A DNA stretch of 64,000 bases from an uncultured virus (IMG/VR IMGVR_UViG_3300044638_009799). Its lineage: Duplodnaviria; Heunggongvirae; Uroviricota; Caudoviricetes. The stretch lies in IMG/VR virus record IMGVR_UViG_3300044638_009799, one strand, 5' to 3'. The notes below the pieces were generated by a model, which saw nothing but the letters and a program-made list of their open reading frames with translations, was not told the DNA's origin and searched no databases. Below are positions 19,576-60,555 of this stretch, in pieces. The position numbers and the translations under genes were made by a program. Each line of letters begins with the position of its first letter. Position 1 is the stretch's first letter.

Positions 19576-20583
19576 ATGTTTCTTTACATCACTTGTGATA
19601 GAATTGGCAATGGAACTGGTGGTGGCACAGTTACCAAAAATGAATTGGAAGCACTTAGCAATTTGGGTCCAATTGATGTAGTTAATCCTCAACCAACTCA
19701 AGATCCGTTTGAAGCAGAAAATGTAATTGATATTCCCAATTTAGAAAAATACAAACTAGCACACTTTTATGCTGGAACATTTCCTAAATTAACTAAAAAA
19801 TTGAAAGAAAAAGGCATCAAGATTTCTTATACGGCAGCAGCCCACGATATTAAAGCAAGCCAAGAGGAATTTAAAATCCTTGGCATTCCTTATGACTTTC
19901 CACACATTAGCAATCCCATACTATGGAATCAATATATATCAAGTTATATTGATGCTGATCTTGTTATTTGTCCAAGCAAACATAGCAATAAAGTAATGCA
20001 AGAATTTGGATGCAAGAACACAACTGTAATACCTCACGGATGCTATGAAGGTGTTAACTATCCTTATCCTAAAACCTTTTCAGTAGGGTACTTGGGTCAA
20101 ATTGGACCAGATAAAGGAGTTAAATATTTAATTGAGGCTTGGGCAAAATTGAATTATAAGGATGCAGTATTAACATTTGCAGGACAGCAATCGCCATATT
20201 TGATTCATATGATTCGTCAATTTGGTGGTAGAGCTAATTATAATATTTTAGGTTATGTGAAAACATTAGATGAATTTTTTAAATCAATTAATGTTTATGT
20301 CCAACCGAGTGTTACGGAAGGTTTTGGAATTGAGATTCTTGAAGCCATGACATTTGGAAGACCAGTTATTGCTTCATACGGAGTTGGTGCTGCTGATTGT
20401 TTGAATAATAATTGTAAACTAGTATTGAAGAAAGATCCCAACTGTATTGCTAAAGCGATTGATTGGTATAAGAACAATACATGGGATTATAGAGAAGAAT
20501 TAATGTCTTATGTTAAAAAATACAATTGGAAAAATATAAGGGAATGTTACATTAATACTTGGAGAGGAATGTTGGAATCATGA
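19576..20583 (+). CDS. GT4 glycosyltransferase
   Basis: PSVTEGFGIEILEAMTFGRPVI. Confidence 0.88.
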   Translation: MFLYITCDRIGNGTGGGTVTKNELEALSNLGPIDVVNPQPTQDPFEAENVIDIPNLEKYKLAHFYAGTFPKLTKKLKEKGIKISYTAAAHDIKASQEEFKILGIPYDFPHISNPILWNQYISSYIDADLVICPSKHSNKVMQEFGCKNTTVIPHGCYEGVNYPYPKTFSVGYLGQIGPDKGVKYLIEAWAKLNYKDAVLTFAGQQSPYLIHMIRQFGGRANYNILGYVKTLDEFFKSINVYVQPSVTEGFGIEILEAMTFGRPVIASYGVGAADCLNNNCKLVLKKDPNCIAKAIDWYKNNTWDYREELMSYVKKYNWKNIRECYINTWRGMLES

Positions 20584-22205
20584 GTTATACTTTTCCGTTT
20601 ACAAAAAATGTAATTGAATTGGGTGGAGGAGACAATCCTTACTTCCGTCCAAATGTTGATGTTCGTTCTGGTGACACTGTGGATGTAGTGGCTGATTTCA
20701 ATCAATCTTTGCCTCTTACAAATTCCACATACGATGGTGTTTTTAGTTGCTATTGTATTGAACATCTTTCTTGGCGTAAAGTCAAACTTTTTGTTTCAGA
20801 AGTATTTAGAATTCTTCGTGATAGTGGCAAAGCCGTTTTTATAACAGCTAACACAAAAAGACAAATGGAATGGGTATTGAATCAAGAAGAATGGAATGAT
20901 GACAGTTCTTCCATTATATTTGGTGATCAGAATTATGATGAAAACACGCACAGAAACAGTCTTTGTCCTGTTTATGCAATCAAGCTAATGCGTGAAGCAG
21001 GGTTTGAAAACATAGTAGTTTTACCACATGGGGAGTTAGGAACAGACATGATTATTGAAGTTGCAAAACCAAAAAAAGAAGATCGCAAAAGTCTATTCGA
21101 CAAACATTATTTCAATGGTGGCGGCAAAGTTGGCGGTTACGCTCATGAAGGATATTGGGATTATCCTGTTCACTGGGTTACTTATCAAAAAGTAATGGAA
21201 CACAATCCCGAATCCATTCTAGAGATTGGTGCTGCTAGAGGGTACATGGTTAAGAAATTTAATGATGCTGGAGTTAGATCTAAAGGATTAGAAATTAGTC
21301 ATCATTGTCAACTAACCAGAGTTACCAATGATGTGATTGAATGGGACATTTGTCAGACTCCTTGGAATTTCAAAGACAAAGAATTTGATTTAGCGTTTTC
21401 AACAGCAGTTTTTGAACATATTCCAGAAGAACATCTTGATGCTGTTTTGAAAGAAATGGATCGAGTTAGTAAGCGTGGCTTGCATGGTGTTGATTTTGGT
21501 GAAAATGATGATGGATTTGATAAAACTCATTGTACTTTGAGAACTAAGGAATGGTGGCTTAAAAGAATGCCATCAACGCAATTGGTTGTTGACAAAGAAG
21601 ACTTAGAGCGTGGAAATATTGCTGTCAACATTCCTGCTGGCGACAATAAACTTAAGGTTAACTTTGGCAGCTTTATTAATATGTTCCATTACGGATGGAT
21701 CAATACTGATGTTTTGAATTTACAAGATTTTGCATCTAGGCACAAATATAAATTTTTAGCAATTAATGCACAAAATCCATTACCTTTTCAAAATGAAACT
21801 ATTGATTTGGCTTATTCAAGTCATATGTTTGAACACTTGACTGTCGCAGAAGGTATCAGTTTCCTTAGTGAATGTTATCGTTGCATGAAAAAAGGTGCTG
21901 TATTGCGTATTGCAGTACCAGATGCTGATAAATTGATTAAATATTATCAAGCCAATCAATTGAATGTATTTGATGAAATTAACGATGGCTGTGCTAGAAA
22001 TGAATTTGAATCAGGTAAATTGTGGTCATTGCTATTTGAAGGTCATAAAATTGCATATGATTTTGCTGGTTTAAAGACATTAGGTGAAAAATCAGGATTT
22101 AAAGTGGAAAAGAAAACATTTTGCAATGGAAATGAACAGATTGTCAAGGAAACTATTGATATGTTGCCTGAAATTAGTTTGTTTGTCGAAATGACAAAAA
22201 ATTAA
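20580..22205 (+). CDS. Triple SAM-methyltransferase-domain protein
   Basis: Three motif-I/EH pairs: ELGGG..CIEHL, EIGAARG..VFEHI, NFGS..MFEHL; start moved to ATG 20580. Confidence 0.75.
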   Translation: MSYTFPFTKNVIELGGGDNPYFRPNVDVRSGDTVDVVADFNQSLPLTNSTYDGVFSCYCIEHLSWRKVKLFVSEVFRILRDSGKAVFITANTKRQMEWVLNQEEWNDDSSSIIFGDQNYDENTHRNSLCPVYAIKLMREAGFENIVVLPHGELGTDMIIEVAKPKKEDRKSLFDKHYFNGGGKVGGYAHEGYWDYPVHWVTYQKVMEHNPESILEIGAARGYMVKKFNDAGVRSKGLEISHHCQLTRVTNDVIEWDICQTPWNFKDKEFDLAFSTAVFEHIPEEHLDAVLKEMDRVSKRGLHGVDFGENDDGFDKTHCTLRTKEWWLKRMPSTQLVVDKEDLERGNIAVNIPAGDNKLKVNFGSFINMFHYGWINTDVLNLQDFASRHKYKFLAINAQNPLPFQNETIDLAYSSHMFEHLTVAEGISFLSECYRCMKKGAVLRIAVPDADKLIKYYQANQLNVFDEINDGCARNEFESGKLWSLLFEGHKIAYDFAGLKTLGEKSGFKVEKKTFCNGNEQIVKETIDMLPEISLFVEMTKN

Positions 22206-22369
22206 TTCCAATGTCTCATACAATTAGCCATAATAAAACCACATGTAATTATATTTATCACCCAAAAGAATGTACGAATGATCACTGTTAAGCAGTGATC
22301 ATTTTCATTTAAGTCCAAGGCTCTTCGCCAAATAGATGAAAAATATTCAATGTTTGTTTTTGTAGTCAT
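22202..22369 (-). CDS. Small membrane protein (55 aa), T4-like phage ..IIRTF..RHWN family
   Basis: Not in ORF track. MTTKTNIEYFSSIWRRALDLNENDHCLTVIIRTFFWVINIITCGFIMANCMRHWN; family recognised from memory. Confidence 0.6.
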   Translation of the reverse strand: MTTKTNIEYFSSIWRRALDLNENDHCLTVIIRTFFWVINIITCGFIMANCMRHWN

Positions 22370-22449
22370 TTTAAATATTTAATTTATTTTGTGCAAATTT
22401 GTAAAAAATATTTAAACAATGAATATAATTTTAGCTTCTTGGTCAAATA

Positions 22450-23190
22450 TTATCCCATAAATTTGCCATTTACTGTTTTTGCTTTTACTTCATTGTAAAA
22501 TAATATGTCACTTTCTATGCTTCTGTATATCTTTTTATACATTTTTGAATTTAATTCTTTTTTTGCATTTGTGTTTCTATTTGTTCCATTTCTACAGCTG
22601 TTTATATCCAGATAGTCCCATCCAGCTAAATCTTTCATTACTTTGATATCTTCTTGATAATTATCTACAAAAATTATTGCATCAAATTGTCTAAGCCTCT
22701 CCCTTGCTAACTCTACACTCTTGCCACAAGCCAAATAATGCACCAAAGGTCCACTAAAGTACGAGCTTTCATCTTCGTAAATAATTGATTTCATTCTTTC
22801 AAGTGATCTTTTGTTTTCTAAAAAAATTTTAAAATTTTTTTTGTATTTACTTGTTTCACATTCGTGATGATAACAACTTAAAAGTATATCAATAGGATGC
22901 CTCAAAACTGTAACATATTTAATTTTTGAATCAAGATGGAAATCTTTAATGTAACCTTCATTAGCGCAAAAGGTAAATTTTTCTGTATCTAAAAAATTCA
23001 GTAAATCTTCTTTACCATAGTTCCAAAATTCAATAATTTTGTTTTCTGAATCATATGGATTGCCATTTTTGTGTGAATCATAAAATTTCTCACCATTTTT
23101 TTCAGCAAGATTCACAAAAGTGCTACCCCCTGACTTGTGTATGTGTAAAAAATAAATCATTCTGTTCATAATTATTGAATTATATATCAA
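22450..23190 (-). CDS. Sulfotransferase family 2-like protein
   Basis: FLHIHKSGGST (5'-PSB) and LRHPIDILLSCY (3'-PB). Confidence 0.8.
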   Translation of the reverse strand: MIYNSIIMNRMIYFLHIHKSGGSTFVNLAEKNGEKFYDSHKNGNPYDSENKIIEFWNYGKEDLLNFLDTEKFTFCANEGYIKDFHLDSKIKYVTVLRHPIDILLSCYHHECETSKYKKNFKIFLENKRSLERMKSIIYEDESSYFSGPLVHYLACGKSVELARERLRQFDAIIFVDNYQEDIKVMKDLAGWDYLDINSCRNGTNRNTNAKKELNSKMYKKIYRSIESDILFYNEVKAKTVNGKFMG

Positions 23191-23216
23191 ATAAATTTAA
23201 AATTAATCTATAGTAT

Positions 23217-23319
23217 AAATGGCTGGTCTGATAATGGTGGTCATTTTAGCACTTTCTCGACCCGGTATCAGTTTATGCAGAAGCAAAGATTAAGTGCGTC
23301 AGCTATGCAACAGCCATTT
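23217..23319. ncRNA. Candidate structured ncRNA (three-way junction with kissing loops)
   Basis: Closing stem AAATGGCTG/CAGCCATTT, two internal arms, complementary loops GCACTT/AAGTGC. Confidence 0.5.
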
Positions 23320-23353
23320 TAATATTTCATCTAAACAAATATATAATGTTATC

Positions 23354-24289
23354 ATGGACATTAACGAAACATACAAAAACTCAGGTCTTGGTAAATGGTT
23401 TGATGAGAAATGGGTAGACATTTCTCGCAAAGACAAATCAGGTAAACATCCACCATGCGGTTCCAGCGCCAAAAAAGGGTCTAGAAAAGGCGATCAGAAG
23501 AAAGCCTACCCTAAGTGCCGTCCAGCAAAAAAAGCTGCTGCAATGAGTCCTGAGCTTAAAGAAAAGGCTACTGCGCAAAAACGTAGGGCAGAAAAGAAAA
23601 AATCACATCGTAAAGGAAGGAAACCAGTGATGGTATCTCACGAAAATCTTAATGAAGGCAAAAATTTACCAAATAATCCTAAATTATGGGCACAGTCTAA
23701 AGCTAAAGCTAAAAGAAAATTTGATGTGTATCCATGTTTACCTGTGTCGTATCCAGCTTTAACTAAAGATGGGTGGAAATACTTTAATGAATTAGAAATA
23801 GGAGATGAGATTGCGGCATTTGACTTGCAACAAAGAATAAGGAAATTTGTTAAAATAGAAAATATACATATTCATAAAAACGCTCCTGTTCATGAAATTT
23901 ACACTGATGGACACTATTTCTGTACATCTACTCTTGATCACAAATGGGTTATTGAGCAAAACGATGAATTATTGCTTGAAGCTGTGATGGGATTCCAATC
24001 ATACACAAAATTGTTTGTTGATAATGGTGTACCTTTACTGAGCAATTTTGAAATACATTCATCTGGTAGTGAAATGGTTTGGTGCCCAGAAACTTCATTA
24101 GGAACATGGGTTACCAGTATTAATGATCAACCATGTGTTACAGGAAATTCAGCTTATGCAAATGCATGGGCATCAGGAGACTATAAGAAAAATGGCGGTA
24201 CATGGCGTAAAAGCAAAAAAAAATATATGTTAAAAGAACATAATATGCCAAGTTTTAATGAATGGCTAAAGAACAGAGAGAATCAGTAG
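23354..24289 (+). CDS. Basic conserved phage protein (..KWFDEKWVDI..YPKCRP..YP/SAYAN..) interrupted by a mini-intein
   Basis: Removing the intein restores VYPSAYANAWA; ATG 23354 preferred to GTG 23294. Confidence 0.7.
   Translation: MDINETYKNSGLGKWFDEKWVDISRKDKSGKHPPCGSSAKKGSRKGDQKKAYPKCRPAKKAAAMSPELKEKATAQKRRAEKKKSHRKGRKPVMVSHENLNEGKNLPNNPKLWAQSKAKAKRKFDVYPCLPVSYPALTKDGWKYFNELEIGDEIAAFDLQQRIRKFVKIENIHIHKNAPVHEIYTDGHYFCTSTLDHKWVIEQNDELLLEAVMGFQSYTKLFVDNGVPLLSNFEIHSSGSEMVWCPETSLGTWVTSINDQPCVTGNSAYANAWASGDYKKNGGTWRKSKKKYMLKEHNMPSFNEWLKNRENQ
23735..24148 (+). mobile_element. Mini-intein, 138 aa, no homing endonuclease
   Basis: Block A CLPVSYPALT, block B STLDHKW (TxxH), block F VWCPET, block G VTGN followed by +1 Ser. 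Confidence 0.88.
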
Positions 24290-24707
24290 ACCAATGTTCT
24301 ATTTCTGGCAAATTTGAATATTGGTTACCACAAAGATAACCAAAAGCAAGGCTTCTGTTGAGCATCATCTTAGTCAGATTAGTTTGTGGTTGATTAACAA
24401 TTTGAATTTCCCCTAAAGACAAATAATCAAAATAAAATAAACCGTTGCTTACCCCTTCATAATCATGTAATTCTTGAAGGACATCTTTAGCCACTTCGTA
24501 AATTTCACCAGAAACTGTATTAGTTCCATTCTTAGCTTTTACCAATGCTGGATATCGTCCACAGTTAAGCAATTTATATTCTGGTTGAAGCTCTGCCATA
24601 GCTATAAGTTTTGATCCTTTGAGTTTATTGTAAGCTCTTTCTCCCTTTTTTAGTGTGCCGTAAACGAATACAGGAACTTTTTTTGTTATTGTCTTTAAAT
24701 TATACAT
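24255..24707 (-). CDS. Gamma-glutamylcyclotransferase (AIG2-like)
   Basis: VFVYGTLKKG, YPALV, GEIYEV, LHDYEG. Confidence 0.85.
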   Translation of the reverse strand: MYNLKTITKKVPVFVYGTLKKGERAYNKLKGSKLIAMAELQPEYKLLNCGRYPALVKAKNGTNTVSGEIYEVAKDVLQELHDYEGVSNGLFYFDYLSLGEIQIVNQPQTNLTKMMLNRSLAFGYLCGNQYSNLPEIEHWSTDSLCSLAIH

Positions 24708-24789
24708 TTATTGCATCCTTGAGGATAAAATCCAAATTAAGTTAGTTATGGTTACTCATTTAATTTGTATAAACATACAAGGAGGCTTC

Positions 24790-25020
24790 ATGTTAGTACT
24801 CACACGCAAGTTGTACGAAAAAGTTTACATCACGACACCAGACGGTAAAAAAATTGCCTTAACAATTTGTGGAATTCAAGGTTATGGCAAGAATGGAAGA
24901 GTAAAAATTGGTATCGATGCAGACAAAAATTATGTTATTGCAAGAGAAGAATTGATTTTATCTAAAAATCAAGAAGAAGAAGAAGAAGAAATATTTTTCA
25001 ACAAGAGTTTGAATTCTTGA
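24790..25020 (+). CDS. csrA: Carbon storage regulator CsrA homolog
   Basis: MLVLTRK..E.V.I..VKIGIDA....IAREEL; SD AAGGAGG before ATG 24790. Confidence 0.88.
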   Translation: MLVLTRKLYEKVYITTPDGKKIALTICGIQGYGKNGRVKIGIDADKNYVIAREELILSKNQEEEEEEIFFNKSLNS

Positions 25021-25262
25021 AATGTAAAGCATTCATCAACAGCATTTATTAATATATTCCAAGAATGATCATCAAGCTTACATTCAAGCTTGATTTGATC
25101 ATTCTTTTTTCCTCTGGTTTTGTTAATTATTCTAAAAGCACTTAGCATTTTGTTTGTGTAAGAACTTTCTACCATTTGTTCGCAATTTCCGCAAAAAACA
25201 ATTCCTTCTTCCAAAACATATGGAAGGAAACCACCGCAGAATGGACAATTTGATATTGGCAT
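24969..25262 (-). CDS. Zinc-ribbon protein
   Basis: CPFC..CGNC. Confidence 0.55.
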   Translation of the reverse strand: MPISNCPFCGGFLPYVLEEGIVFCGNCEQMVESSYTNKMLSAFRIINKTRGKKNDQIKLECKLDDHSWNILINAVDECFTFQEFKLLLKNISSSSSS

Positions 25263-25300
25263 CTATGCTTATATACTAATCAAGATAAAAATTTAAAAAA

Positions 25301-25374
25301 TGACCCCGGTGGGACTCGAACCCACGACCTACGCATTAAAAGTGCGTTGTTCTAGCCAACTGAACTACGAGGTC
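25301..25374 (-). tRNA. tRNA-Lys(UUU), CCA not encoded
   Basis: Acceptor GACCTCG/CGGGGTC, D arm, anticodon arm ACGCA-CTTTTAA-TGCGT, T loop GTTCGAG. Confidence 0.95.
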
Positions 25375-25381
25375 ATAAAAC

Positions 25382-25463
25382 GGGTGATGGATTAGTTGAG
25401 ATGGAGGGTCAGGAAGTCTGACTTTTGCTGCGTAGCACTACATCTTTCCCCAATCCATTACCC
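25382..25463 (+). ncRNA. Candidate structured RNA next to the tRNA
   Basis: Stem GGGTGATGGATT/AATCCATTACCC, inner GAGATG/CATCTT, hairpin GGGTCAG-GAAGT-CTGACTT; G-U pairs favour + strand. Confidence 0.4.
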
Positions 25464-25475
25464 ATTGATCACATG

Positions 25476-26732
25476 TTAACCAATTTCATCATTAATGTCA
25501 ACATCTCCTCCTGCATTAACTGGCAATCCTGCTTCAGCAAAACGAGTTGACCAACGATAAACAAAATCTTGATAAGAAATTTTTTCTTCAAACATTGCTT
25601 TGATCATATCGGCAAAGCAATTATTGAGAATAGGCGTAATTGTTTCATGTTCATCAGTCATATGTCCTCTAGCAATAGATGCTTCAATATCTTTCACCCA
25701 ATTATCACGAGCAGACTTCATAGTAATCTTGACCTTGCTTTTTTTAGGAGCAGTAGGTTCTTCTTCATCGCTATCATTTTCAATGATTGGTTCTGCGTCA
25801 ATATCATCAATAGCTTCTTCAACATTTTTACTATTAACACGAGGTGTGATATCATTTCTTTCACGCTTGCGTTCTTCTAACGTAGAAGTGTGTTTTTCTA
25901 TTAACGCATCTGCATTAGTGATATCATCAATATCGCCACACTCTTCAGCTTCTTCTTTTACTTTCTCAGCTTTCTTTAATTTTCTGTTAGTATTAAAAAT
26001 AGCGTTATCTTGTTTCTTCAGTTTTTCTTCATAGTCGCATGAAGCTTTTTTGATAGCAATTTGGAAAATACGCTGACGTTCTTCTTCATCAGTAATTTCC
26101 ATCAAAGAACTTGCAGCATTTGCATTGATCCTGCCATCAAGAAGAGCTTCCTTGATATCAGGGTCTTGATTTACTTTTTGCAACAACTTTGTTGCATAAC
26201 GAAGCCAAGATATAGTCTTTCCACACATTTCAAAAATTTTATTTTCAGGCATGTTAAAAACAATACAATAATCAACAAATCTAATGGTAGCGTTTTCACC
26301 AAAAGAAATCTTATTGCTATCGCTTTCAAATGACCGACTGAAACATTGAGAAGGATTTAATCCATGATGAATTTTGACAATAATATTTTCATACAAATCC
26401 TTAGCAGGAACATGTTGATTGGTATGTATATCATAACAAGCAGCATTGTCTGCAATTAATTGAGAGATAGCTTCGTGTCTACGATGACCATCAATCAAAA
26501 CATATTCACCATTAATGTGGTTAACATGAAAATTTTCCATAAGACCTTTTGACTTAATGGAATTTTTCAACTGATCAATTTCTTCTGATGAAAAACCATA
26601 ATTCTCACGATTTTTAACATCAAGGATACGAGGATTGAAGAAACCAAACTCAAATTCATCAAACTCCTTAGCTGGCTTAATAGAAGATAAGGGAATGCGA
26701 AACAAACCTGTTTCAATGTCAACAACTTGCAT
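25476..26732 (-). CDS. ParB/Srx-like N-terminal domain protein with coiled/acidic C-terminus
   Basis: FNPR, LKNSIKSKGL, LIDGHRRHEA. Confidence 0.75.
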   Translation of the reverse strand: MQVVDIETGLFRIPLSSIKPAKEFDEFEFGFFNPRILDVKNRENYGFSSEEIDQLKNSIKSKGLMENFHVNHINGEYVLIDGHRRHEAISQLIADNAACYDIHTNQHVPAKDLYENIIVKIHHGLNPSQCFSRSFESDSNKISFGENATIRFVDYCIVFNMPENKIFEMCGKTISWLRYATKLLQKVNQDPDIKEALLDGRINANAASSLMEITDEEERQRIFQIAIKKASCDYEEKLKKQDNAIFNTNRKLKKAEKVKEEAEECGDIDDITNADALIEKHTSTLEERKRERNDITPRVNSKNVEEAIDDIDAEPIIENDSDEEEPTAPKKSKVKITMKSARDNWVKDIEASIARGHMTDEHETITPILNNCFADMIKAMFEEKISYQDFVYRWSTRFAEAGLPVNAGGDVDINDEIG

Positions 26733-41666: not shown

Positions 41667-41987
41667 CTACTCGTCAAGATGATCATAAGCTGAAGGTTTT
41701 GACCAAGGACCGTCTGGTTTCTCTTTTTGTAACTGATCATATAAAGATTCAATAATATAATCTGCTTTTTGTTTAAACCATTCTCTCATGTACAATTTGT
41801 CACCACGCTTGTCCTTTGGAACATCTAGGACAATTCTTACAATTTCTTTATCATCAGTAAAATAATCATTAACGAACTTCTTGATATAGTCAGACGCTTT
41901 CTGACCTTTTGCGGAAGCAACATTACTGATTCGAACATGCAAAGATTCTAAAACACCAAAGGTGATTATTTTTTGTTTTTCGGACAT
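41667..41987 (-). CDS. Possible ribbon-helix-helix DNA-binding protein
   Basis: KIITFGV-helix-G..ASDYI pattern. Confidence 0.4.
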   Translation of the reverse strand: MSEKQKIITFGVLESLHVRISNVASAKGQKASDYIKKFVNDYFTDDKEIVRIVLDVPKDKRGDKLYMREWFKQKADYIIESLYDQLQKEKPDGPWSKPSAYDHLDE

Positions 41988-42241
41988 GGCTTTTCTTTCT
42001 TCTTTACAGGAAAACTTTCACGCATTTGGCTCTTGAGAATTGTTGCTTCCTTCTCTCTTGCCTTGCGCCTCTTCTTCTCAGCAGGACTTTCATACGTTTC
42101 TCTAAGCCTGTATTCTCTGAGAATACCAGCTTTATTAACAGCTTGCCTAAAAGCACTCAAAAGTGACTTAAATGACTTTTCTCTGTTATCGTCATAACCA
42201 TTGTCTCTTGAGACAACACGAACATTAGCTTTGCGTGACAT
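41966..42241 (-). CDS. rpsU: Ribosomal protein bS21 homolog
   Basis: SFKSLLSAFRQAVNKAGILREYRLRETYESPAEKKRRK. Confidence 0.8.
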   Translation of the reverse strand: MSRKANVRVVSRDNGYDDNREKSFKSLLSAFRQAVNKAGILREYRLRETYESPAEKKRRKAREKEATILKSQMRESFPVKKKEKPCPKNKK

Positions 42242-46391: not shown

Positions 46392-48860
46392 TTAGTTCAT
46401 CAAAACAATTCTATAATCCATTTCAGCAGATGGAAGCAAATATCTCTTGTGTTTGGGAGGAGAATTTAAACTATATGTAGAAAAACCATTAGAAGGTGGC
46501 TTGACCTGCATCGATAAACAATTGTTAACATTCAACAAATTCTTAAACACAGCATAATCATCTTCCCAAACATTAATCTTCTCTATTCTAAAACTACTGT
46601 CCATAGCCGTTATCTGACAATAAGGTTTATTTGACTTGGAAAGCTTTTTGTTAACTTCTAATAATTCTATTTGAACCATATGCTTAGTGGCACCTAACGC
46701 ATGAGAATTAACCACAGAATCAAATGTGCAATTTTCATTATACATTTTCATGAGATTAAGCCTACAAGTAAACTGAAATCCATAATGCTTTCTCTCAGCA
46801 AGGTAAATATCATTCAATTCTGATAATAAATCTTCATCTTCAATGACAATATCATCATCGTCAAAATCTTCATAAGAAATTTCAATCTTTGCTTCTTCTT
46901 TGCTTTCCATTCTCTTCCATTTTTTATACAATTTATTCACATCACTTGAATCGTTAATTGATTTGAGAACACCAAACAACTCTTCCGATAAATCTAAATT
47001 CCAATACTTCTCTGGAATCAATGACAAAACAGTCTTTTTTAATTCAATATATGATCTGTTTACCCTCTTGTTCTTTTCAGTAACTTTTTTGTTTTTATTT
47101 AAAAAAGACTGCCAATAACTGTAAAACTTGATGGTCTCATCACCAAAAACCCGTAAAGGAATTAACGCCTTCAACACACTCGCATCTGTACCAAATCTCC
47201 TCAAAAAATCATCAACATCCTTGTATGGCTGAAGAGAAACAATTTTATTTGCTGTGTCTGTTCCAATTCCCTTAATATTACCAAAACCAATATAAATAAC
47301 ACCATCTTGTATGGAAAAACTAGCCTTGCTCTTGTTCAAATCTACAGCTCTAACCTCAATACCATGCTTTTGAGCATCTGTAATGTAAATTCTTTTCTTC
47401 TCTTCACTTCCCTCTAACATCAATAAGGCTGCATAAAACTCAAGCGGATAATGTGTCTTTAAATATAATTGGCGTGATGAGACGTAAGTATAAGCTGTGG
47501 CATGACTTAGATTGAATCCGTAGGCAGCGAATGCCTCAATTTCAGAGAAAATTTGTGTTACTTCTTCTCTCTTGGCATCAAGTACATGAACGCCATTTTC
47601 AATAAATTGTTCTTTGTATTTTACGAAACTGCTAATTTTCTTTTTTGAAATAGCTTTTCTGATTGTTTCGCAATCTTTGAGAGGAATCTTGCCAACTACG
47701 TTAAGAATCCTCATAACCTGTTCTTGGTAAACAATAATTCCATATGTAGAAGAAAGGATTGGTGCAAGAGCAGGATGAAGGACATATTCTTCTTGTTTTC
47801 TTTTTCTTCTGATGAATACTTTATCCATTTCTGCGTTGAGAGGACCGGGACGATATAAACTGACGATTGCTACTAAGTCATCAAAACTATCGATCCCAGA
47901 GGATTTTACGACCTCTCTAATGCCATTGCTATCATACTGGAACACACCAATAAGATCTGCATCATTAGCATTTGCTATTGATTTTGTATCATTAAGATAA
48001 GACGTATCATCCCAATCTTCATTTTTACCTGAAATAAATGTTACATTATGTCTTTCCTTAACCATCTTTGCAGTATAAGCCATCTGCTCCAAAGCACTGA
48101 TAACCAACAAATCAAATTTTACAAGACCAAGCGGTCCAAGCTCTTGTGTTGCTAATCCTTCAACAAATTGTGATACTAAGTAATCGCCACCAGTAGTCTT
48201 CATCAAAGGAACAAATTTATTGATTTCATCCCTGCATATAATAACACCGCCAGCATGTTTACCTGTGTTTCTCACTCTATGAAGCAATTTCTGAACCGCT
48301 AATGCTAATTCTGGATATTTTTCTAGATATGATTTAAGTTCAGGATATGTTTCAACAGCTTCCTCGTAAGTTAATTCATCACCATCTTCATCTTTCATCC
48401 TTAAATTTGTCGTAATATTTAATACTTCATTTCTATCCAATCCATAAATTCTTGCCATGTCAATCATGGCACTCTTAAGAGCATATCTACCATATGTTCC
48501 AATAGAGCAAGTATTTACAGCTTTATATTCATTAGGAGCATATATGTTTTTAAGATAATCTCTAACATCTGCTATAAAGTCAATATCAACGTCTGGAAAT
48601 TCATTTGTTTTTGTTTTGGGCATTTCGTTTATGTTAAATTCATCACATATTCCAAGAAGAACTGGAACAAGGAGGTTGTTTTCATTTGGTAATTTCTTTT
48701 TTTGCCTTACGAGGTCAATAAAATAATCACAACAATTTTGTGTTTCTATTTCAATTAATTCATATCTGAGCCGGAATTTGTGTTCCGGGTCATTGCAAAA
48801 AGGAAATTTGTTAAACTGATTATTGATCAGTTTGGTAAAACTTTCAATTGTAATGCTCAT
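46392..48860 (-). CDS. dnaE: DNA polymerase III alpha (DnaE), C-terminal catalytic part
   Basis: PDVDIDF, GKHAGG, GLVKFDLL, GVFQ, LYRPGP, YQEQVM, YGFNLSHA, IKGIG, OB fold. Confidence 0.93.
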   Translation of the reverse strand: MSITIESFTKLINNQFNKFPFCNDPEHKFRLRYELIEIETQNCCDYFIDLVRQKKKLPNENNLLVPVLLGICDEFNINEMPKTKTNEFPDVDIDFIADVRDYLKNIYAPNEYKAVNTCSIGTYGRYALKSAMIDMARIYGLDRNEVLNITTNLRMKDEDGDELTYEEAVETYPELKSYLEKYPELALAVQKLLHRVRNTGKHAGGVIICRDEINKFVPLMKTTGGDYLVSQFVEGLATQELGPLGLVKFDLLVISALEQMAYTAKMVKERHNVTFISGKNEDWDDTSYLNDTKSIANANDADLIGVFQYDSNGIREVVKSSGIDSFDDLVAIVSLYRPGPLNAEMDKVFIRRKRKQEEYVLHPALAPILSSTYGIIVYQEQVMRILNVVGKIPLKDCETIRKAISKKKISSFVKYKEQFIENGVHVLDAKREEVTQIFSEIEAFAAYGFNLSHATAYTYVSSRQLYLKTHYPLEFYAALLMLEGSEEKKRIYITDAQKHGIEVRAVDLNKSKASFSIQDGVIYIGFGNIKGIGTDTANKIVSLQPYKDVDDFLRRFGTDASVLKALIPLRVFGDETIKFYSYWQSFLNKNKKVTEKNKRVNRSYIELKKTVLSLIPEKYWNLDLSEELFGVLKSINDSSDVNKLYKKWKRMESKEEAKIEISYEDFDDDDIVIEDEDLLSELNDIYLAERKHYGFQFTCRLNLMKMYNENCTFDSVVNSHALGATKHMVQIELLEVNKKLSKSNKPYCQITAMDSSFRIEKINVWEDDYAVFKNLLNVNNCLSMQVKPPSNGFSTYSLNSPPKHKRYLLPSAEMDYRIVLMN

Positions 48861-48866
48861 ACGATG

Positions 48867-48895
48867 ATTTTACTGGATTTGATTGTAAAAATCAA
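48867..48895 (-). promoter_or_regulatory. sigma70 promoter of dnaE-C, probably leaderless
   Basis: TTGATT-17nt-TAAAAT ends 6 nt before ATG 48860; no SD. Confidence 0.55.
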
Positions 48896-48928
48896 ACGAA
48901 AATCGTAAATAAAGCATAGAGGTGAACA

Positions 48929-49222
48929 ATGGCAAAAAAAGTTAAATCATTAGCTGCTTATAAAAAAGATTTAGAAATTAGCGATTCTCAAAAGAAATTG
49001 CAGGATATTATGAAAAGTTATGCTTTTCCTGATACAAATGCACCAGAAGATACTTTCGTCAAAGGTAAACATTACGGTTTCCCACTACAAGGCAAAAAAA
49101 GTTTGCCCTATAGAGCTAAAGGTTATAACACAGACAAACCTTTCGGTGATCTAGGAACACCAAGTATTGATTATTCAAGAAAAAGCAAGTTTGATGATTA
49201 TGAAGTTAGTCACTTGGACTAA
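48929..49222 (+). CDS. Hypothetical phage protein
   Basis: TAAATA + SD GAGGTG. Confidence 0.55.
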   Translation: MAKKVKSLAAYKKDLEISDSQKKLQDIMKSYAFPDTNAPEDTFVKGKHYGFPLQGKKSLPYRAKGYNTDKPFGDLGTPSIDYSRKSKFDDYEVSHLD

Positions 49223-49224
49223 AA

Positions 49225-51036
49225 ATGATTATAATTAATTTTCGTGAATATTTTTATTTATATGAATCAATTGATCAAAATTTTGATCAATGGCTTGTAG
49301 ATTTGAAAACACATGCAAGACCAGATGAATCAGAAATAAAAACATTCAATATTCCAGATAATAAAAAACAATTTATAATTAATATTCTTAAATCAAAAAA
49401 TGTTGAAAATAAACAATATATGAAGTACTTGCTTGGTTTTGCAACAACACCTCAATCATCTCACATTGAAGACTATGATCGTGTTGTTGACACACTAAAA
49501 TGGTTCATCCAAACAAATAGATTAACCAAAGCACAAGTCGAAGCAGATGGATGGTTTAATACAGGAAAAAGAGCAACAGAACTGACACAAGAAAAAGATC
49601 AAATACTTAACCCATATTCAAAAACAAAAGAAAAAAAAGAAAAAAAACTTGGAATAGCAGAAAATATTTTACCTTTATTCCAATCAGGAAATATAAAAAT
49701 TTATTTTTCTCCAAAAGCAACCAATGAAAAAAGTAATTTTGAAAAAATAAAAGAAGATGCTGAAAAACCAGAGATGAAAGCAAGACATAAAATTTTGTGC
49801 AAATACGGTAAAGATACAAATTGGTGTACAGCATCAGCAAGTGGAACTTTTCATGCAATATATGCAGATAGAAACATTTACATAGTTCATATAGATGACA
49901 AACCAGCTTATCAATTTATGGATTGTAGTGAAGGTGACACAGATAATAGATGTCAATTTCATGATGCTAAGAACGCAAGTGCTAAATCAATTCCTCTTGA
50001 TTTAGCATTATTGATTAAAGAAAAATTACCAAAGATAGCTTCATTTTATGGTTGCATAATAAACACTTTTATCAAAAATGGTCCTTTAAATCTTGTTAAA
50101 TATCTTATAGATGAAAAAGAATATAAAATAAATATTGATTCACTTTCTATGGCACTCCAAGGTGGTCATTTAGATATTATTAAATATCTTGAAGATGAAA
50201 AAGGTGCAAAAATAGATACTTATACAATTAGTAATATAATTGAAAGTGGTAATTTAGATGTTGTTAAAGATCTTGTGGAAAAAAAAGGTGCAGGCATAGG
50301 TGTTAATGCATATTCTGATGCAGTCAAAAGTGGCAATTTAAATGTTGTTAAATATGTTGTGGAAAAAGGTGCAACAATAGGTATTAATGCAGTTAATAAT
50401 GCAATAGAAACTGGTAATTTAGATCTTATTGAATATCTTGTAGATGAAAAAGAATATTTTATACATAATGATGGATTTATTCTAGCAATCAAAAATGGTC
50501 ATTTACATATTGTTAAATATCTTGTAAATGAAAAAGGTAAAGAAATAAGTTATGATTTATTTCAGAAAGCGGTACTCAGTGGTCATTTAAATATTGTTAA
50601 ATTTTTTATGGAAAAAAATGCAAGAATAGCAAGCCTAGGTGATGGACATATGGCTTACCTTGCAGCAAGCAAGGGTCATTTACATATTCTTAAATATCTT
50701 GTAGAGGAAAAAGGTGTAAAAATAAATGATATGACATATAACGAAGCAATCGATAAAGGTCATTTAGATGTTATAAAATATTTATCGGGAGATGAGGTTG
50801 TTGATAAGGAAGGCAATGTTTATAAATTGAAAGATGGTATAAAACCATACAAAATAGATAATTACGCAGTTTATGCTGCGGCACAAAATGGAAAATTAAA
50901 TATTGTTAAATATCTTGTAGAAAAAGGTGCAGAAATAATTGATGATGCAGTTTATATTGCATATGAAAAAGGGCATAAAGATATAGGTGATTATTTGAGA
51001 TCAGCGATCAGCCATGATTGGAGTAAAAATGATTAG
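49225..51036 (+). CDS. Ankyrin-repeat protein A (shared N-domain with YGKDTxWCTAS)
   Basis: Many GHL/GNLxxVKYLVE repeats. Confidence 0.85.
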   Translation: MIIINFREYFYLYESIDQNFDQWLVDLKTHARPDESEIKTFNIPDNKKQFIINILKSKNVENKQYMKYLLGFATTPQSSHIEDYDRVVDTLKWFIQTNRLTKAQVEADGWFNTGKRATELTQEKDQILNPYSKTKEKKEKKLGIAENILPLFQSGNIKIYFSPKATNEKSNFEKIKEDAEKPEMKARHKILCKYGKDTNWCTASASGTFHAIYADRNIYIVHIDDKPAYQFMDCSEGDTDNRCQFHDAKNASAKSIPLDLALLIKEKLPKIASFYGCIINTFIKNGPLNLVKYLIDEKEYKINIDSLSMALQGGHLDIIKYLEDEKGAKIDTYTISNIIESGNLDVVKDLVEKKGAGIGVNAYSDAVKSGNLNVVKYVVEKGATIGINAVNNAIETGNLDLIEYLVDEKEYFIHNDGFILAIKNGHLHIVKYLVNEKGKEISYDLFQKAVLSGHLNIVKFFMEKNARIASLGDGHMAYLAASKGHLHILKYLVEEKGVKINDMTYNEAIDKGHLDVIKYLSGDEVVDKEGNVYKLKDGIKPYKIDNYAVYAAAQNGKLNIVKYLVEKGAEIIDDAVYIAYEKGHKDIGDYLRSAISHDWSKND

Positions 51037-53011
51037 AATTAATTTTCGTGAATATTTTTATTTATACGAATCAATTGATCAAAATTTTAATCAATGGCTT
51101 GTAGATTTGAAAACACATGCAAGACCAGATGAATCAGAAATAAAAACATTCAATATTCCAGATAATAAAAAACAATTTATCATTAATACTCTTAAATCAA
51201 AAAATATTGAAGATAAACAATATATGAAATATTTAATTGGTTTTGCAACAACACCTCAATCATCTCACATTGAAGATTATGATCGTGTTGTTGACACACT
51301 AAAATGGTTCATTCAAACAAATAGATTAACCAAAGCACAAGTCGAAGCAGATGGATGGTTCAATACAGGAAAAAGGGCAACGGAACTAACAAGAGAAAAA
51401 GATCAAATACTTAACCCAGCTTCAAAAACAAAAGAGAAAAAAGAAAAAAAACTTGGAATAGCAGAAGATATTTCACCTTTATTCCAATCAGGAAATATAA
51501 AAATTTATTTTTCTCCAAAAGTAACCAATGAAAAAAACAATTTTGAAAAAATAAAAGAAAATGCTGAAAAACCAGAGATGAAAGCAAGACATAAAATTTT
51601 GTGCAAATACGGTAAAGATACAGATTGGTGTACAGCATCACCAACTGGAACTTCTCATGTAATGTATGCAGACAGAAACATTTACATAGTTCATATAGAT
51701 GACAAACCAGCTTATCAATTTATGGATTGTAGTTATGAGGGTGACACAGATGGTACATGTCAATTTCATGATGCTAAGAACGTAAGTGCTATATCAATTC
51801 CTCTTGATTTAGCATTATTGATTAAAGAAAAATTACCAAAGATAGCTTCATTTTATGGTTGTGTAATAAACACTTTTATTGAAAATGGTGATTTAGATAT
51901 TGTTAAATATCTTGTAGAAAAAGGTGGGAAAGTAGGTTTTGATACAGTTTCTTATGCAGCAGGAACTAGAAATTTAGAACTTGTTGAATATCTTATAGAA
52001 AAATGTGGAAAAATAGGTGATAAGGAAGTTTATTATGCAGCAGAGAAGGGCAATTTAGATTTTGTTAAATGTCTTGTAAAAAAAGGTGCAAAAATAGGTG
52101 ATGAGACAGTTTCTAAAGCAGCAGAAATTAATCGTTTAGATCTTGTTAAATTTCTTGTAGAAAACGGTGGAAAAATAGGTGATGAGGCAGTTTCTAGTGC
52201 AGCAGAGAAGGGCAATTTAGATCTTGTTAAATTTCTTGTAGAAAACGGTGGAAAAATAGGTGATGAGGCAGTTTCTAAAGCAGCAAGGGCTGACAATTTA
52301 GAACTTGTTGAATATCTTGTAGAAAAAGGTGCAGAAATAGGTGATGTGGCAGTTTATTATGCAGCAGAGAAGGGCGATTTAGATTTTGTTAAATATCTTG
52401 TAAAAAAAGGTGCAAAAATAAGTTATGATGCAGTTTCTAGTGCAGTAGAGAAGGGCAATTTAGATCTTGTTAAATTTCTTGTAGAAAACGGTGGAAAAAT
52501 AGATGAATATACAGTTAATCGTGCAGTAAGGATTGACAATTTAGCTCTTGTTAAATATCTTGTAGATGAAAAAAGTGCAAAAATAAGTGATGACGTAGTT
52601 TCTAATGCAATTCATAATGCAGTAATGACTGGTAGTTTAGATACTATTGAATATCTTTTAGAAAAAGGTGCAAAAATAGGCAAATATGACGTTTATAGAG
52701 CAGTCGAATACGGCTTTGACAATGGCGTTGATCTTGTTGAATATCTTATAGAAAAAGGTGGAATAATAGATGACGAGACAGTTAGATTGGCAGCAAAAAA
52801 TAATGATTTAAAATTTGTTAAATATCTTGTAGAAAAAGGTGCAGAAATAGGTGATGCAGTTACTTATGCAGCAGGAACTGGAAATTTAGAACTTGTTGAA
52901 TATCTTGTAGAAAAAGGTGGGAAAGTAGATAATTATGCAGTTAGATATGCAGCAAATAAGGGCAATTTAGATCTTGTTAATTATTTGAAATCAGCCATGA
53001 ATAGAAACTAA
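51029..53011 (+). CDS. Ankyrin-repeat protein B, tandem paralog
   Basis: N-terminal ~285 codons near-identical to A; 27-aa repeats; exact 62-bp DNA repeat 52135-52196 = 52216-52277. Confidence 0.85.
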   Translation: MIRINFREYFYLYESIDQNFNQWLVDLKTHARPDESEIKTFNIPDNKKQFIINTLKSKNIEDKQYMKYLIGFATTPQSSHIEDYDRVVDTLKWFIQTNRLTKAQVEADGWFNTGKRATELTREKDQILNPASKTKEKKEKKLGIAEDISPLFQSGNIKIYFSPKVTNEKNNFEKIKENAEKPEMKARHKILCKYGKDTDWCTASPTGTSHVMYADRNIYIVHIDDKPAYQFMDCSYEGDTDGTCQFHDAKNVSAISIPLDLALLIKEKLPKIASFYGCVINTFIENGDLDIVKYLVEKGGKVGFDTVSYAAGTRNLELVEYLIEKCGKIGDKEVYYAAEKGNLDFVKCLVKKGAKIGDETVSKAAEINRLDLVKFLVENGGKIGDEAVSSAAEKGNLDLVKFLVENGGKIGDEAVSKAARADNLELVEYLVEKGAEIGDVAVYYAAEKGDLDFVKYLVKKGAKISYDAVSSAVEKGNLDLVKFLVENGGKIDEYTVNRAVRIDNLALVKYLVDEKSAKISDDVVSNAIHNAVMTGSLDTIEYLLEKGAKIGKYDVYRAVEYGFDNGVDLVEYLIEKGGIIDDETVRLAAKNNDLKFVKYLVEKGAEIGDAVTYAAGTGNLELVEYLVEKGGKVDNYAVRYAANKGNLDLVNYLKSAMNRN

Positions 53012-53055
53012 ATTTTCCCTGATATTCTCTAAATAATTGCTAAGAGTCAAACTAA

Positions 53056-54393
53056 TCAAGCTTGACTAAACTTTAGTACAGCTTGACTACCTCTGTTCTC
53101 TGAGAGGAATCTAGAGAATAGCAGGTCATGTCTGATTGGATCTACGTCAGTAACACCAAGTAAATATAAGACGAGAGAACCAGCACCAGAACCTCTTCCG
53201 GGTCCAACCGCATAGACACCATCCAAACCAGTAATCTCATGACTAATTCTCCTAGCTTCATCAGTAAAACTTTTAACAATTAAAAAGTAAGATGAAAATT
53301 GCTTTCTAAAAATCAAATCTAATTCTTCTAATATTCTCTTGAAATAAACACCATTAGTTTTACTAATCCCTCTCTTCTTCAAACCTTGCATCACTAATTC
53401 TTTCAATTTCTCCTCTTCATCAACAATCTTAGGCAATTTAACACTTCTGTCCAACTTAACATTCTCTGCCATGCGACATATCTTAACAGTATTCATCTTG
53501 GCTTGTTCAAATATCTCCAAAGGAATTACATCAGAATATTTCTCAAGCCACTTCTTGTTCATTTCATCTTCAGTCTTCATCCAAAGATTTCTATCCTGCA
53601 ATTCAAAAACATCAGCATTTTCTGACTTCAACTTTTCAATTTCAGCTAATGTCCTCTTAGTGTTAACCAACATCATTATTGTCTGATACTTGCTATCTTC
53701 CTCATATGCATAATGAACATCATTGCTCATAATCATAGGAATACCATGCTTAAGATGCATTTCTACTAAAAATTGGTCATAACCTCTCTGATACTCAAAA
53801 TCAAGCAACATCATTTCAAGATAAAAGTTATCACCAAACATATCCTTGTATTTCAGAACCATTTCTTCTGCTTTTTCTTTTCCATATAGCTTCAAAGCTC
53901 TTGCTGCTTCTGAAGCGCAACAACAACTAGTAAAGATTATACCTTCTCTGTGTTTCTTTAATAATTCATGATTAACTCTAGGTTTCCTATAAAAACCTTG
54001 TGACCAACCAAGGCTACAAAGTTTAGTTAAGTTTTCGTAACCTTTGTTTGAAACGGCAATGGCTAATATATGACTTGATGTTTTGAATGCTTCGTATTGA
54101 TCAGGAGAAAGACTCTTTATGAAGTTATTTCTTTCTTCTTCGTTCTCAGTTGCTTCTGTGTGAATAGGATTAACGTAAAGCTCGCAGCCAAAAACGGGCT
54201 TAAACTTCTTTTTATCAAATTGTTCTGTTTGTGAGATTAGACTTGGAATTGATGCCATAAGTCCATGATCAGTAACACAAAGATAGTCGCCATGCGTACT
54301 CCATCTGTCGCAATATTCTAAAATTTTCCCAAAACCGTCAAGGATACTGTATTCGCTATGTAAATGAAGGTGTTCAAATCCAACAATATTCAT
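53056..54393 (-). CDS. dnaE: DNA polymerase III alpha (DnaE), N-terminal PHP part
   Basis: HLHLHSEYSILDG, TDHG, GCELY, KPR, NDVHY, GPGRGSGAGSLV, LLFSRFL; start ATG 54393 (or TTG 54420). Confidence 0.92.
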   Translation of the reverse strand: MNIVGFEHLHLHSEYSILDGFGKILEYCDRWSTHGDYLCVTDHGLMASIPSLISQTEQFDKKKFKPVFGCELYVNPIHTEATENEEERNNFIKSLSPDQYEAFKTSSHILAIAVSNKGYENLTKLCSLGWSQGFYRKPRVNHELLKKHREGIIFTSCCCASEAARALKLYGKEKAEEMVLKYKDMFGDNFYLEMMLLDFEYQRGYDQFLVEMHLKHGIPMIMSNDVHYAYEEDSKYQTIMMLVNTKRTLAEIEKLKSENADVFELQDRNLWMKTEDEMNKKWLEKYSDVIPLEIFEQAKMNTVKICRMAENVKLDRSVKLPKIVDEEEKLKELVMQGLKKRGISKTNGVYFKRILEELDLIFRKQFSSYFLIVKSFTDEARRISHEITGLDGVYAVGPGRGSGAGSLVLYLLGVTDVDPIRHDLLFSRFLSENRGSQAVLKFSQA

Positions 54394-54431
54394 GTGATTA
54401 ACTATCCTTGCTAATAACAAATTACCTCCAC

Positions 54432-54460
54432 ATTTTAACATATGGAGTTGTTTTTGTCAA
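54432..54460 (-). promoter_or_regulatory. sigma70 promoter of dnaE-N
   Basis: TTGACA-17nt-TAAAAT with TGn extended -10. Confidence 0.7.
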
Positions 54461-59349: not shown

Positions 59350-59351
59350 GA

Positions 59352-60539: not shown

Positions 60540-60555
60540 TTTTATTCTCCTTAAA

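Follow-up and report, generated by a model that had tools for sequence, protein, structure and literature searches.

A candidate stand-alone small RNA with a three-way junction and kissing loops in very large freshwater phages

A stretch of about 103 nucleotides (nt) between two divergent genes of an uncultured virus of the Caudoviricetes (IMG/VR record IMGVR_UViG_3300044638_009799) raises the question whether it encodes a structured RNA and, if so, whether this RNA works by itself or controls one of the genes beside it. The window, as the whole analyzed stretch of 64,000 nt is called here, contains this element at positions 23217-23319 of its plus (+) strand. An original prediction, made from the sequence of the window, had described a three-way junction with kissing loops in a GC-richer intergenic island, which matched no riboswitch or ribozyme known to the reader and was taken to be either a noncoding RNA or a cis-acting regulator. 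All of its stems and the two complementary 6-nt loop sequences are present (Table 1), and the three-way junction, in which a closing helix (P1) carries two arms with the loops L2 and L3, is the minimum-energy fold of the + strand in RNAfold. The joints between the helices are 2, 4, and 1 nt long. The GC fraction is 0.37 in 23200-23299 as compared to 0.21 in 23150-23249 and 0.26 in 23100-23199 just upstream, and the flanking open reading frames (ORFs) are indeed divergent, one on the minus (-) strand encoding a sulfotransferase-like protein (22450-23169; Pfam Sulfotransfer_2, E 1.8e-5) and one on the + strand encoding a DUF5872 protein (23354-24289). Comparison with relatives in other phages leads us to regard the element as a stand-alone structured small RNA of ~100 nt, which is encoded on the + strand, acts in trans, and occurs once per record in very large freshwater phages. 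We put the probability of this reading at about 0.7.

Folding energy and covariation

The window sequence by itself does not set the element clearly above chance. The folding energy of the + strand is -27.4 kcal/mol (z -1.57) and was equaled by 14 of 200 shuffled sequences, while 7 of 200 shuffles folded as well as the - strand (z -1.97). The 9-mer of P1 was counted three times in the window, with 0.95 occurrences expected. Folding against shuffles, one of the checks proposed with the original prediction, is thus weak on both strands, even though the same junction is the RNAfold optimum, and energy decides neither way.

A much stronger signal was obtained from diverged relatives. Five versions of the element were compared, namely those of the window, V (loci L019, L020, and L032), L031, L034, and s4 (L026/L036). 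The main count was made on a model-fitted alignment of six sequences, i.e., the five versions and L017, a 1-nt variant of the window copy, and the kissing helix was added by hand. Across 37 pairs, corresponding to 215 cells of the alignment, 98.1% of the cells are paired, 20 of the 37 pairs have changed on both sides, and 27 further pair types are found. None of 500 column shuffles reached any of the five measures, and slid controls, in which the partners were shifted by 1-3 columns, gave 27-42% paired cells and 0-5 double-change pairs.

The double changes are spread over the structure. They were found in 7 of the 9 pairs of P1, the helix of which reads AACCCG/CGGGUU in L034, in all 7 pairs of the two lower helices of arm 3, and in 3 of the 12 pairs of arm 2, where one G-C/G-U change is added and 98.6% of the cells are paired. 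The top helix of arm 3, GAU/GUC, is invariant, and so is the block AAGAUUAA before L3. In the kissing helix 3 of the 6 pairs are doubly changed and 100% of the cells are paired: the window has GCACUU/AAGUGC, V and L031 share ACACUU/AAGUGU, and L034 and s4 share GCUGUU/AACAGC. Since the search model leaves the kissing columns unpaired, their covariation does not stem from alignment to the model. When RNAalifold was applied to a plain, unfitted MAFFT alignment, it returned the same junction with 32 pairs, 16 of which show compensatory changes. Arm lengths are likewise kept: the strands of arm 2 (15 and 13 nt) and its 16-nt loop have the same lengths in the five versions, while the strands of arm 3 measure 15-17 and 12-13 nt and its L3 7-8 nt.

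Judged from the aligned copies, every helix shows maintenance by compensatory substitutions, the invariant top helix of arm 3 excepted. The element is therefore set apart from chance by the covariation of its relatives and not by its folding energy, and it is very probably a real, evolutionarily maintained gene for a structured RNA. Collecting homologues and testing them for covariation, as had also been proposed, bore out the three-way junction with kissing loops in four diverged relatives, and the complete fold including a tertiary loop-loop helix could be read from natural covariation in only five versions.

The relatives were found along several routes. The closest IMG/VR relative of the window is L004, a locus in record G002, and the metagenome contig L017 is 97.7% identical to the window over 1963 base pairs (bp). 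With the sulfotransferase protein as search query, only the identical IMG/VR contig and this one 97.7%-identical metagenome contig were retrieved. Comparison of contigs from four lake runs with the window yielded one variant, 23277 G>A, and a lead to the V allele: in a low-depth lake contig the match is confined to 23262-23317, after which the contig diverges from the window, and 21 nt of the diverging sequence, used as an IMG/VR query, led to L019 and L020. These two loci are identical across the element and contain a full-length copy ~88% identical to that of the window. The V-type allele is also present in a lake metagenome run (X18) that contains the phage of the window. A covariance model (R1) built from the window-type and V copies found the strongly diverged copy s4 in G002 (G002:C1:62317-62428), and a degenerate pattern of the bases common to the first three versions led to L031 and L034 as true members. 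When five records were searched whole with a second covariance model (R2), each gave exactly one strong match (93-122 bits), and the window also gave one.

Beyond that of the window, four diverged versions are present in five other IMG/VR phage records, which measure 59-340 kilobases (kb) and contain one copy each. The completeness of the relative-bearing records according to CheckV is 14-69%, which together with the record sizes would put the full genomes of these phages at roughly 430-490 kb. All 20 public runs containing the stretch are lake or freshwater DNA metagenomes, and none is on record as RNA. Neither second copies nor a repeat family of the kind of PeSL-like cassette ends were found in the window or in any record searched, and the occurrence as a single copy everywhere searched rules out a PeSL-like repeat or cassette-end element.

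The same searches defined where the element does not occur. In IMG/VR, chance pattern matches were obtained at four loci from the first pattern and at two from the second; those at L030/L035, L033/L037, L062, and L068 lie in coding-like DNA and have no model match. An exact 19-20-mer match, L003, was also due to chance, and one exact 20-mer query missed relatives because of its variable last base. In bacterial and archaeal genome contigs, all 19 pattern matches were without a model match, and no bacterial copy keeping those 20 bases was found. R1 gave nothing on the records of L011 and L013, R2 gave nothing on five records of distant DUF5872 relatives, and in BLAST against GenBank phages neither the 2-kb region nor either of two versions of the element that were searched found a match. 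A 13-bit R2 match in S-SM2 was rejected, as its would-be kissing loop has no partner and its z is -0.65. A small ORF was rejected as well: the 24-codon frame starting at 23219 stops after 13 codons in V and carries L>Q and V>E changes.

Rfam 15 was searched by gathering-score scans of the window and the four relative loci and by three local scans at E<=10. The gathering-score scans returned tRNAs only, in the window only tRNA-Lys (25301-25374), and the local scan of the window copy gave two snoRNA noise matches only. The element itself is not a tRNA (RF00005), for which there was no match on it at E<=10, and ARAGORN finds only tRNA-Lys 25300-25375 in the window.

Table 1. Parts of the element and promoter-like sites next to it, in window coordinates
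Feature	Sequence or content	Position	Strand	Basis or remark
P1 closing helix, perfect 9 bp	AAATGGCTG with CAGCCATTT	23217-23225 with 23311-23319	+	sequence, RNAfold
P1 5' strand as RNA	AAAUGGCUG	23217-23225	+	partner 23311-23319
P1 3' strand as RNA	CAGCCAUUU	23311-23319	+	followed by U-rich tail UAAUAUUU at 23320-23327
Arm 2 (P2) as a whole	lower stem, internal loop, upper stem, L2	23228-23271	+	
Arm 2 lower stem	CTGATA with TATCAG	23228-23233 with 23266-23271	+	sequence
Arm 2 internal loop, conserved	UGGNGG / CGG	23235-23240 / 23263-23265	+	alignment of versions
Arm 2 upper stem	GGTC with GACC	23239-23242 with 23259-23262	+	sequence
L2, 16-nt loop of arm 2		23243-23258	+	closed by GGTC/GACC
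Kissing sequence in L2	GCACTT (RNA GCACUU)	23249-23254	+	pairs with 23292-23297
Arm 3 (P3) as a whole	three short helices and L3	23276-23309	+	
Arm 3 helix	TGCA with TGCA	23276-23279 with 23306-23309	+	sequence
Arm 3 helix	AGC with GCT	23282-23284 with 23302-23304	+	sequence
Arm 3 top helix	GAT with GTC	23288-23290 with 23298-23300	+	sequence
L3, 7-nt loop of arm 3	contains kissing sequence AAGTGC (AAGUGC)	23291-23297	+	kissing sequence at 23292-23297, complementary to GCACTT (23249-23254)
Sigma-70-like promoter candidate	TTGAAT-17-TAAAAT	23175-23203	+	consensus scan; ends 13 nt before P1
Promoter-like site of DUF5872 gene	TTAATA-17-TATAAT	23319-23347	+	abuts RNA gene; ends 6 nt before ATG 23354

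Strand, ends, and genomic setting

The original prediction had left the strand uncertain. Read on the + strand, the 215 cells comprise 195 Watson-Crick, 16 G-U, and 4 unpaired cells, as compared to 195, 3, and 17, respectively, on the opposite strand. These G-U pairs, together with the tRNA, terminator, and promoter context described below, favor the + strand of the window as the coding strand of the RNA, while the single-nucleotide variant of L017 fits the - strand better. A sigma-70-like promoter candidate precedes P1 in the window (Table 1), and a similarly placed TTGATT-18-TATTAT ends 4 nt before P1 of V. Downstream of s4, a 12-pair terminator hairpin with a U tail was found on the same strand as the element; it is this hairpin that the Rfam DapZ model matches with 22.1 bits. 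In the window, the 3' end of the RNA would lie in the region of P1 and the U-rich tail. The RNA may have a sigma-70-like promoter of its own or be co-transcribed with a tRNA operon, and its 3' end could be made variously, by the P1 helix and U-rich tail, by a separate terminator, or by the RNase P cut of a following tRNA. As the terminator hairpin of s4 takes the 3' strand of P1, P1 seems to be dispensable, with the two kissing hairpins as the core of the structure.

The genes around the element differ from version to version. In the window it stands between the sulfotransferase and the DUF5872 genes, and P1 ends 35 nt before the ATG of the latter at 23354. The neighbors of V are a ClpX gene, a 72-codon ORF, and, nearby, a CsrA gene, and no same-strand ORF follows for ~300 nt. 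L031 is flanked by a phosphatase-like gene and a GNAT ORF, which starts 47 nt after P1, and s4 by a divergent DUF5872 gene on one side and by its terminator and then a convergent methyltransferase gene on the other. The neighbors of L034 are a hypothetical ORF and a tRNA-Gly: here (L034/L059) the element is part of an array of six same-strand tRNAs, with its start directly adjoining the stop codon of a 177-codon ORF and its end lying 3 nt ahead of the first tRNA-Gly on the same strand. The array (L059 115-2308, in a 340-kb IMG/VR record) consists of tRNAs Arg, Lys, Ile, Gly, Gly, and Thr on one strand, interleaved with small ORFs. This location in a tRNA array applies to one of the five versions, and the other four lie outside such arrays. 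The downstream feature is different in all five, being a DUF5872 gene, a GNAT gene, a tRNA-Gly, a terminator with a convergent gene, or no nearby gene.

According to blastn, window 20043-22347 corresponds to L004 1-2305 at 98.3% identity and window 23337-25291 to L004 2484-4443 at 84.5%. The 989 bp between them (22348-23336), which comprise the sulfotransferase-like gene and the RNA gene, are replaced in L004 by 178 unrelated-looking bp. These contain the diverged RNA gene s4 and its terminator in inverted orientation relative to the same flanking genes, so that the element of L004 points away from the DUF5872 gene that the window copy precedes. Since 44 of the 45 differences between L017 and the window lie outside 22305-23862, the single one inside being 23277 G>A, this segment is a recently exchanged island, which covers both the sulfotransferase and the RNA genes and extends over the 5' part of the DUF5872 gene. 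The sequence comparisons show a gene that moves among phage genomes as a small cassette, independently of its neighbors. Because the neighbors differ at every locus, the element is inverted in L004, and the L034 copy is embedded in a tRNA array, we read it as a stand-alone small RNA and not as a riboswitch. Of the two possibilities offered by the original prediction, the noncoding RNA gene has thus gained support and the cis-acting regulator has lost it.

A number of observations weigh against this reading. The folding z values of the five versions are unremarkable (-1.57, -1.61, -1.31, -1.50, and +0.18), and the consensus fold differs from the minimum-energy folds of V, L031, and L034. The versions number just five and form two main groups, and fitting the alignment of the main count to the model favors the structure. 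The variant 23277 G>A of L017, located in arm 3, breaks a pair on the + strand and would stay G-U on the - strand, and of the two invariant U-G pairs from which the strand signal mostly comes, one is isolated and the other lies at the end of a helix. Promoter-like sites in the region number 13, with 12.9 expected from shuffles, and the promoter scan gave no site on the strand of the element for L031 or s4, where weaker ones can be seen by eye. The hairpin adjacent to V is a terminator for the opposite strand only, and that of s4 uses the 3' strand of P1, so that P1 may not form there. For RF02965, the one Rfam family with a recurring signal (see below), the window copy, V, and L031 yielded no match at E<=10, and the scores of the other two copies are far under its gathering score. 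Finally, it is from sequence that we infer the transcription, the ends, and the strand of the RNA.

Some further features of the region and of the phage were recorded. The DUF5872 gene (window 23319-23356) has no Shine-Dalgarno sequence, and the same promoter hexamers are found before the gene in L004 (- strand of L036). Since its TATAAT ends 6 nt before the ATG and a Shine-Dalgarno sequence is missing, this arrangement suggests that the DUF5872 mRNA is leaderless or nearly leaderless. At 22277-22303, after the methyltransferase gene, there is a perfect 11-bp hairpin (AATGATCACTG / CAGTGATCATT) with a 5-nt loop, which is conserved in L004. The tRNA-Lys(UUU) gene (25300-25375, -) lies within 25292-25547, a stretch without alignment to L004, the 5.9 kb of which contain no tRNA; this tRNA is a second small-RNA-gene indel, 2 kb from the element. 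Next to the RNA gene of V, the ClpX-like ATPase is encoded directly beside it and a CsrA homologue 0.7 kb away (L019 1541-2806 and 3687-3914).

Pfam domains in the 62 ORFs of the window indicate a large phage with a DnaE-type DNA polymerase III alpha subunit, PhoH, dUTPase, ParB-like proteins, an HNH endonuclease, and many glycosyl- and methyltransferases. The polymerase is split into two - strand ORFs (window 46395-54441), one with the PHP domain and the start of the NTPase domain (53059-54441, -) and one with the rest of the NTPase domain, the finger, and the HHH domain (46395-48860, -). Two + strand ankyrin-repeat ORFs (49225-51033 and 51014-53008) are located between the halves. The window also encodes a phage IF3 (39050-39493), a ribosomal protein S21 (41969-42241), and a PrkA / DUF444 / SpoVR trio (57757-62631).

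Possible mode of action and alternative explanations

If the loops pair within one molecule, they would clamp the two equally long arms side by side into a rigid, tRNA-sized particle. Among the unpaired bases, those conserved best are found at this clamped end and not at the junction; they comprise UGGNGG/CGG of the internal loop, GUUUU...UUUC in L2, and the block before L3. Because these bases cluster there, the clamped end could be a binding surface for a host or phage protein, and the RNA might act in trans as a decoy or as a subunit of a ribonucleoprotein, possibly tied to tRNA or translation. Such a protein-binding or decoy role is the mechanism that we prefer, though only tentatively. 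CsrA is known to bind a GGA motif, and in V and L031 the internal loop contains GGA in UGGAGG, the other three versions having UGGUGG.

The loops may instead pair between molecules and form dimers or rings that serve as a scaffold, similar to the prohead RNA of phage phi29. The covariation of the loops is equally compatible with pairing within and between molecules, and a 7-nt loop paired over 6 nt is typical of intermolecular kissing complexes. However, the near-equal and constant arm lengths of the five versions suit a clamp within one molecule and would not be needed by a ring, none of the loci is linked to a packaging or head gene, and no match to the prohead RNA was found in Rfam at E<=10. 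We therefore consider an intermolecular scaffold rather unlikely.

Of similarly low probability is a specific variant of the trans-acting RNA, in which it would be a phage counter-measure, i.e., a rigid, tRNA-sized mimic or sponge, clamped by its kissing loops, that ties up a host factor acting on tRNA or translation or binds a signaling nucleotide. Such an RNA would be made alongside the phage tRNAs, and its target could be, e.g., an anticodon nuclease or another RNA-targeting defense protein. If this unlikely case were true, the wider group of CyVA-1-like RNAs, discussed below, would be a widespread class of RNA-based anti-defense decoys.

A cis-acting leader, that is, a riboswitch or protein-control site for the DUF5872 gene in the window and for the GNAT gene in L031, would agree with the short distances between P1 and these two genes. 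A junction clamped by its loops is moreover the architecture of purine riboswitches, and the P1 3' strand of s4, shared with the terminator stem, resembles an expression platform. Against this, none of the five downstream features recurs, and in three versions (L034, s4, and V) it is not a protein gene that could be regulated. The orientation in L004 is away from the DUF5872 gene, and in the window the promoter-like site of that gene is located after the element. Conservation peaks at the distal end of the arms, and the junction strands are short. A leader function is accordingly improbable, and a stand-alone RNA remains the preferred reading.

Slightly less probable still is that the stand-alone RNA is an independent small-molecule aptamer or a self-cleaving ribozyme, for instance a sponge for a signaling nucleotide or an RNA involved in the processing of tRNA precursors. 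In favor of this are the compact, pseudoknotted fold with its strong conservation and invariant unpaired bases and the location of one copy between an ORF and a tRNA, where processing is needed. Yet the three local Rfam scans gave no riboswitch or ribozyme at E<=10, in agreement with the original prediction, which had found no known class of either, and the riboswitch classes of Rfam 15 also lack support from a recurring class of downstream gene. The junction strands, apart from being short, are moderately conserved, and no candidate cleavage site is defined. The core of the hammerhead ribozyme consists of unpaired CUGANGA and GAAA at the junction. The hammerhead-like CUGAUAA of the element is base-paired, lacks the core G, and varies among the versions (CAGAUAA, CACAUAG), so that a hammerhead was rejected; other self-cleaving ribozymes had no match at E<=10.

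A site acting at the level of DNA, such as a cruciform or single-strand fold for recombination or replication at a cassette boundary, was also weighed. The element is placed exactly at the indel and inversion breakpoint between close relatives, inside the recently exchanged island, and Watson-Crick covariation would fit DNA equally well. Such a site is nevertheless very improbable: the 16 G-U cells, with the two invariant U-G pairs among them, are tolerated on one strand only, a second copy as recombination partner is missing in the window and the records, one copy is situated inside a tRNA array on the tRNA strand, and a covarying loop-loop helix has no obvious role in duplex DNA. That the element is simply intergenic promoter DNA between divergent genes with stems formed by chance, as the single-sequence z values of just -1.3 to -2.0 and a promoter-like CTGATA-17-TAAAAT overlapping it on the - strand might suggest, can be dismissed in view of the 20 covarying pairs among 37, which no shuffle matched, the same fold in RNAalifold, and the retention of the element in unrelated contexts and in both orientations.

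Comparison with known RNA systems

The purine riboswitch has a three-way junction that is closed by P1 and whose two parallel arms are joined through pairing of their loops. This global design is common to its aptamer (RF00167) and the element. They differ in that no match to RF00167 was obtained at E<=10, the joints of the element are much shorter, and its kiss consists of 6 Watson-Crick pairs; the element also lacks a conserved class of downstream gene and a conserved expression platform.

Phages of the phi29 family encode a stand-alone RNA, the prohead RNA (pRNA), which has a three-way junction and two loops complementary to each other. All of these traits of the pRNA (RF00044) would be shared by the element. 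In contrast to pRNA, the element has no Rfam match to this family and no link to packaging genes, and the loops of pRNA pair between molecules, whereas pairing within one molecule is the favored model for the element.

Phage T4 encodes two small stable RNAs, rnaC (species 1) and rnaD (species 2), in its tRNA cluster (AF158101 70908-71171). Like the L034 copy, which stands in an array directly before a tRNA, they adjoin phage tRNA genes on the tRNA strand. Their predicted folds are unlike that of the element, and kinship was rejected: with its filters switched off, R2 gave nothing above noise on L061 2409-2672, and the best match in the 6-kb locus, at 14.2 bits, falls in a coding sequence. Literature searches on small stable RNAs beside phage tRNAs yielded nothing relevant.

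The only recurring Rfam signal is CyVA-1 (RF02965), an RNA of the Rfam type "Gene; sRNA", against which the L034 copy scored 13.8 bits and s4 12.2 bits; apart from these matches and that of DapZ, the local scans gave noise. Both scores are below the gathering score of 41.4 bits, by which the element does not belong to the family, but in the 340-kb and 78-kb records the RF02965 matches at E<=10 fall only on the element and on its strand. The novelty claimed in the original prediction hence holds at the Rfam threshold and is qualified by these weak matches exactly on two copies. RF02965 had no match in five cyanomyovirus genomes (P-SSM2, Syn9, S-SM2, S-PM2, and S-SSM7), and literature searches on CyVA-1 found nothing on phage relatives. 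A catalogue of RNA candidates from DNA viruses lists 8,495 of them (Fremin et al., 2023; PMC10690425), and the six IMG/VR sample numbers are absent from the readable files of that study, which do not include its alignment archives.

CyVA-1 and the element are both three-way junctions with two hairpins inside a closing helix. According to cmscan, the CyVA-1 consensus has a 6-bp P1, a 2-nt joint, a 4-bp hairpin with a 16-nt loop starting with GUUUU, a 4-nt joint, an 8-bp hairpin with a 17-position loop starting with GAA, and a 2-nt joint. A G-rich 5' flank (GG..GGG) of the first hairpin is common to both, and the L2 of the element is also 16 nt long and starts with A/GUUUU. Where L3 is 7 nt long, as in three copies, the top of arm 3 (A/GAA, GAU, L3, GUC, and A) comprises 17 nt; in V and L031 it comprises 18 nt. 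The joints of ~2, 4, and 2 nt in CyVA-1 resemble those of 2, 4, and 1 nt in the element. The two differ in that arm 2 of the element has an additional 6-bp lower stem and the conserved internal loop, and in length: the element has ~103 nt and CyVA-1 ~78 nt, the mean given by Weinberg et al. (2017; PMC5737381). Furthermore, cmscan aligns just the first CyVA-1 hairpin consistently, which suggests that the basal helices are wired differently. In our estimate, which compares the element with the consensus line and not with real member sequences, the chances are even that it is a rewired and expanded relative and thus a true homologue of CyVA-1.

The noncoding RNAs of very large phages, which carry tRNAs, translation factors, and ribosomal proteins, are almost unexplored, and the RNA described here is short and well defined. 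If it is indeed a rewired relative of CyVA-1, it would link a catalogued RNA to a broader phage-borne group and provide a second architecture that any model of CyVA-1 function would have to explain.

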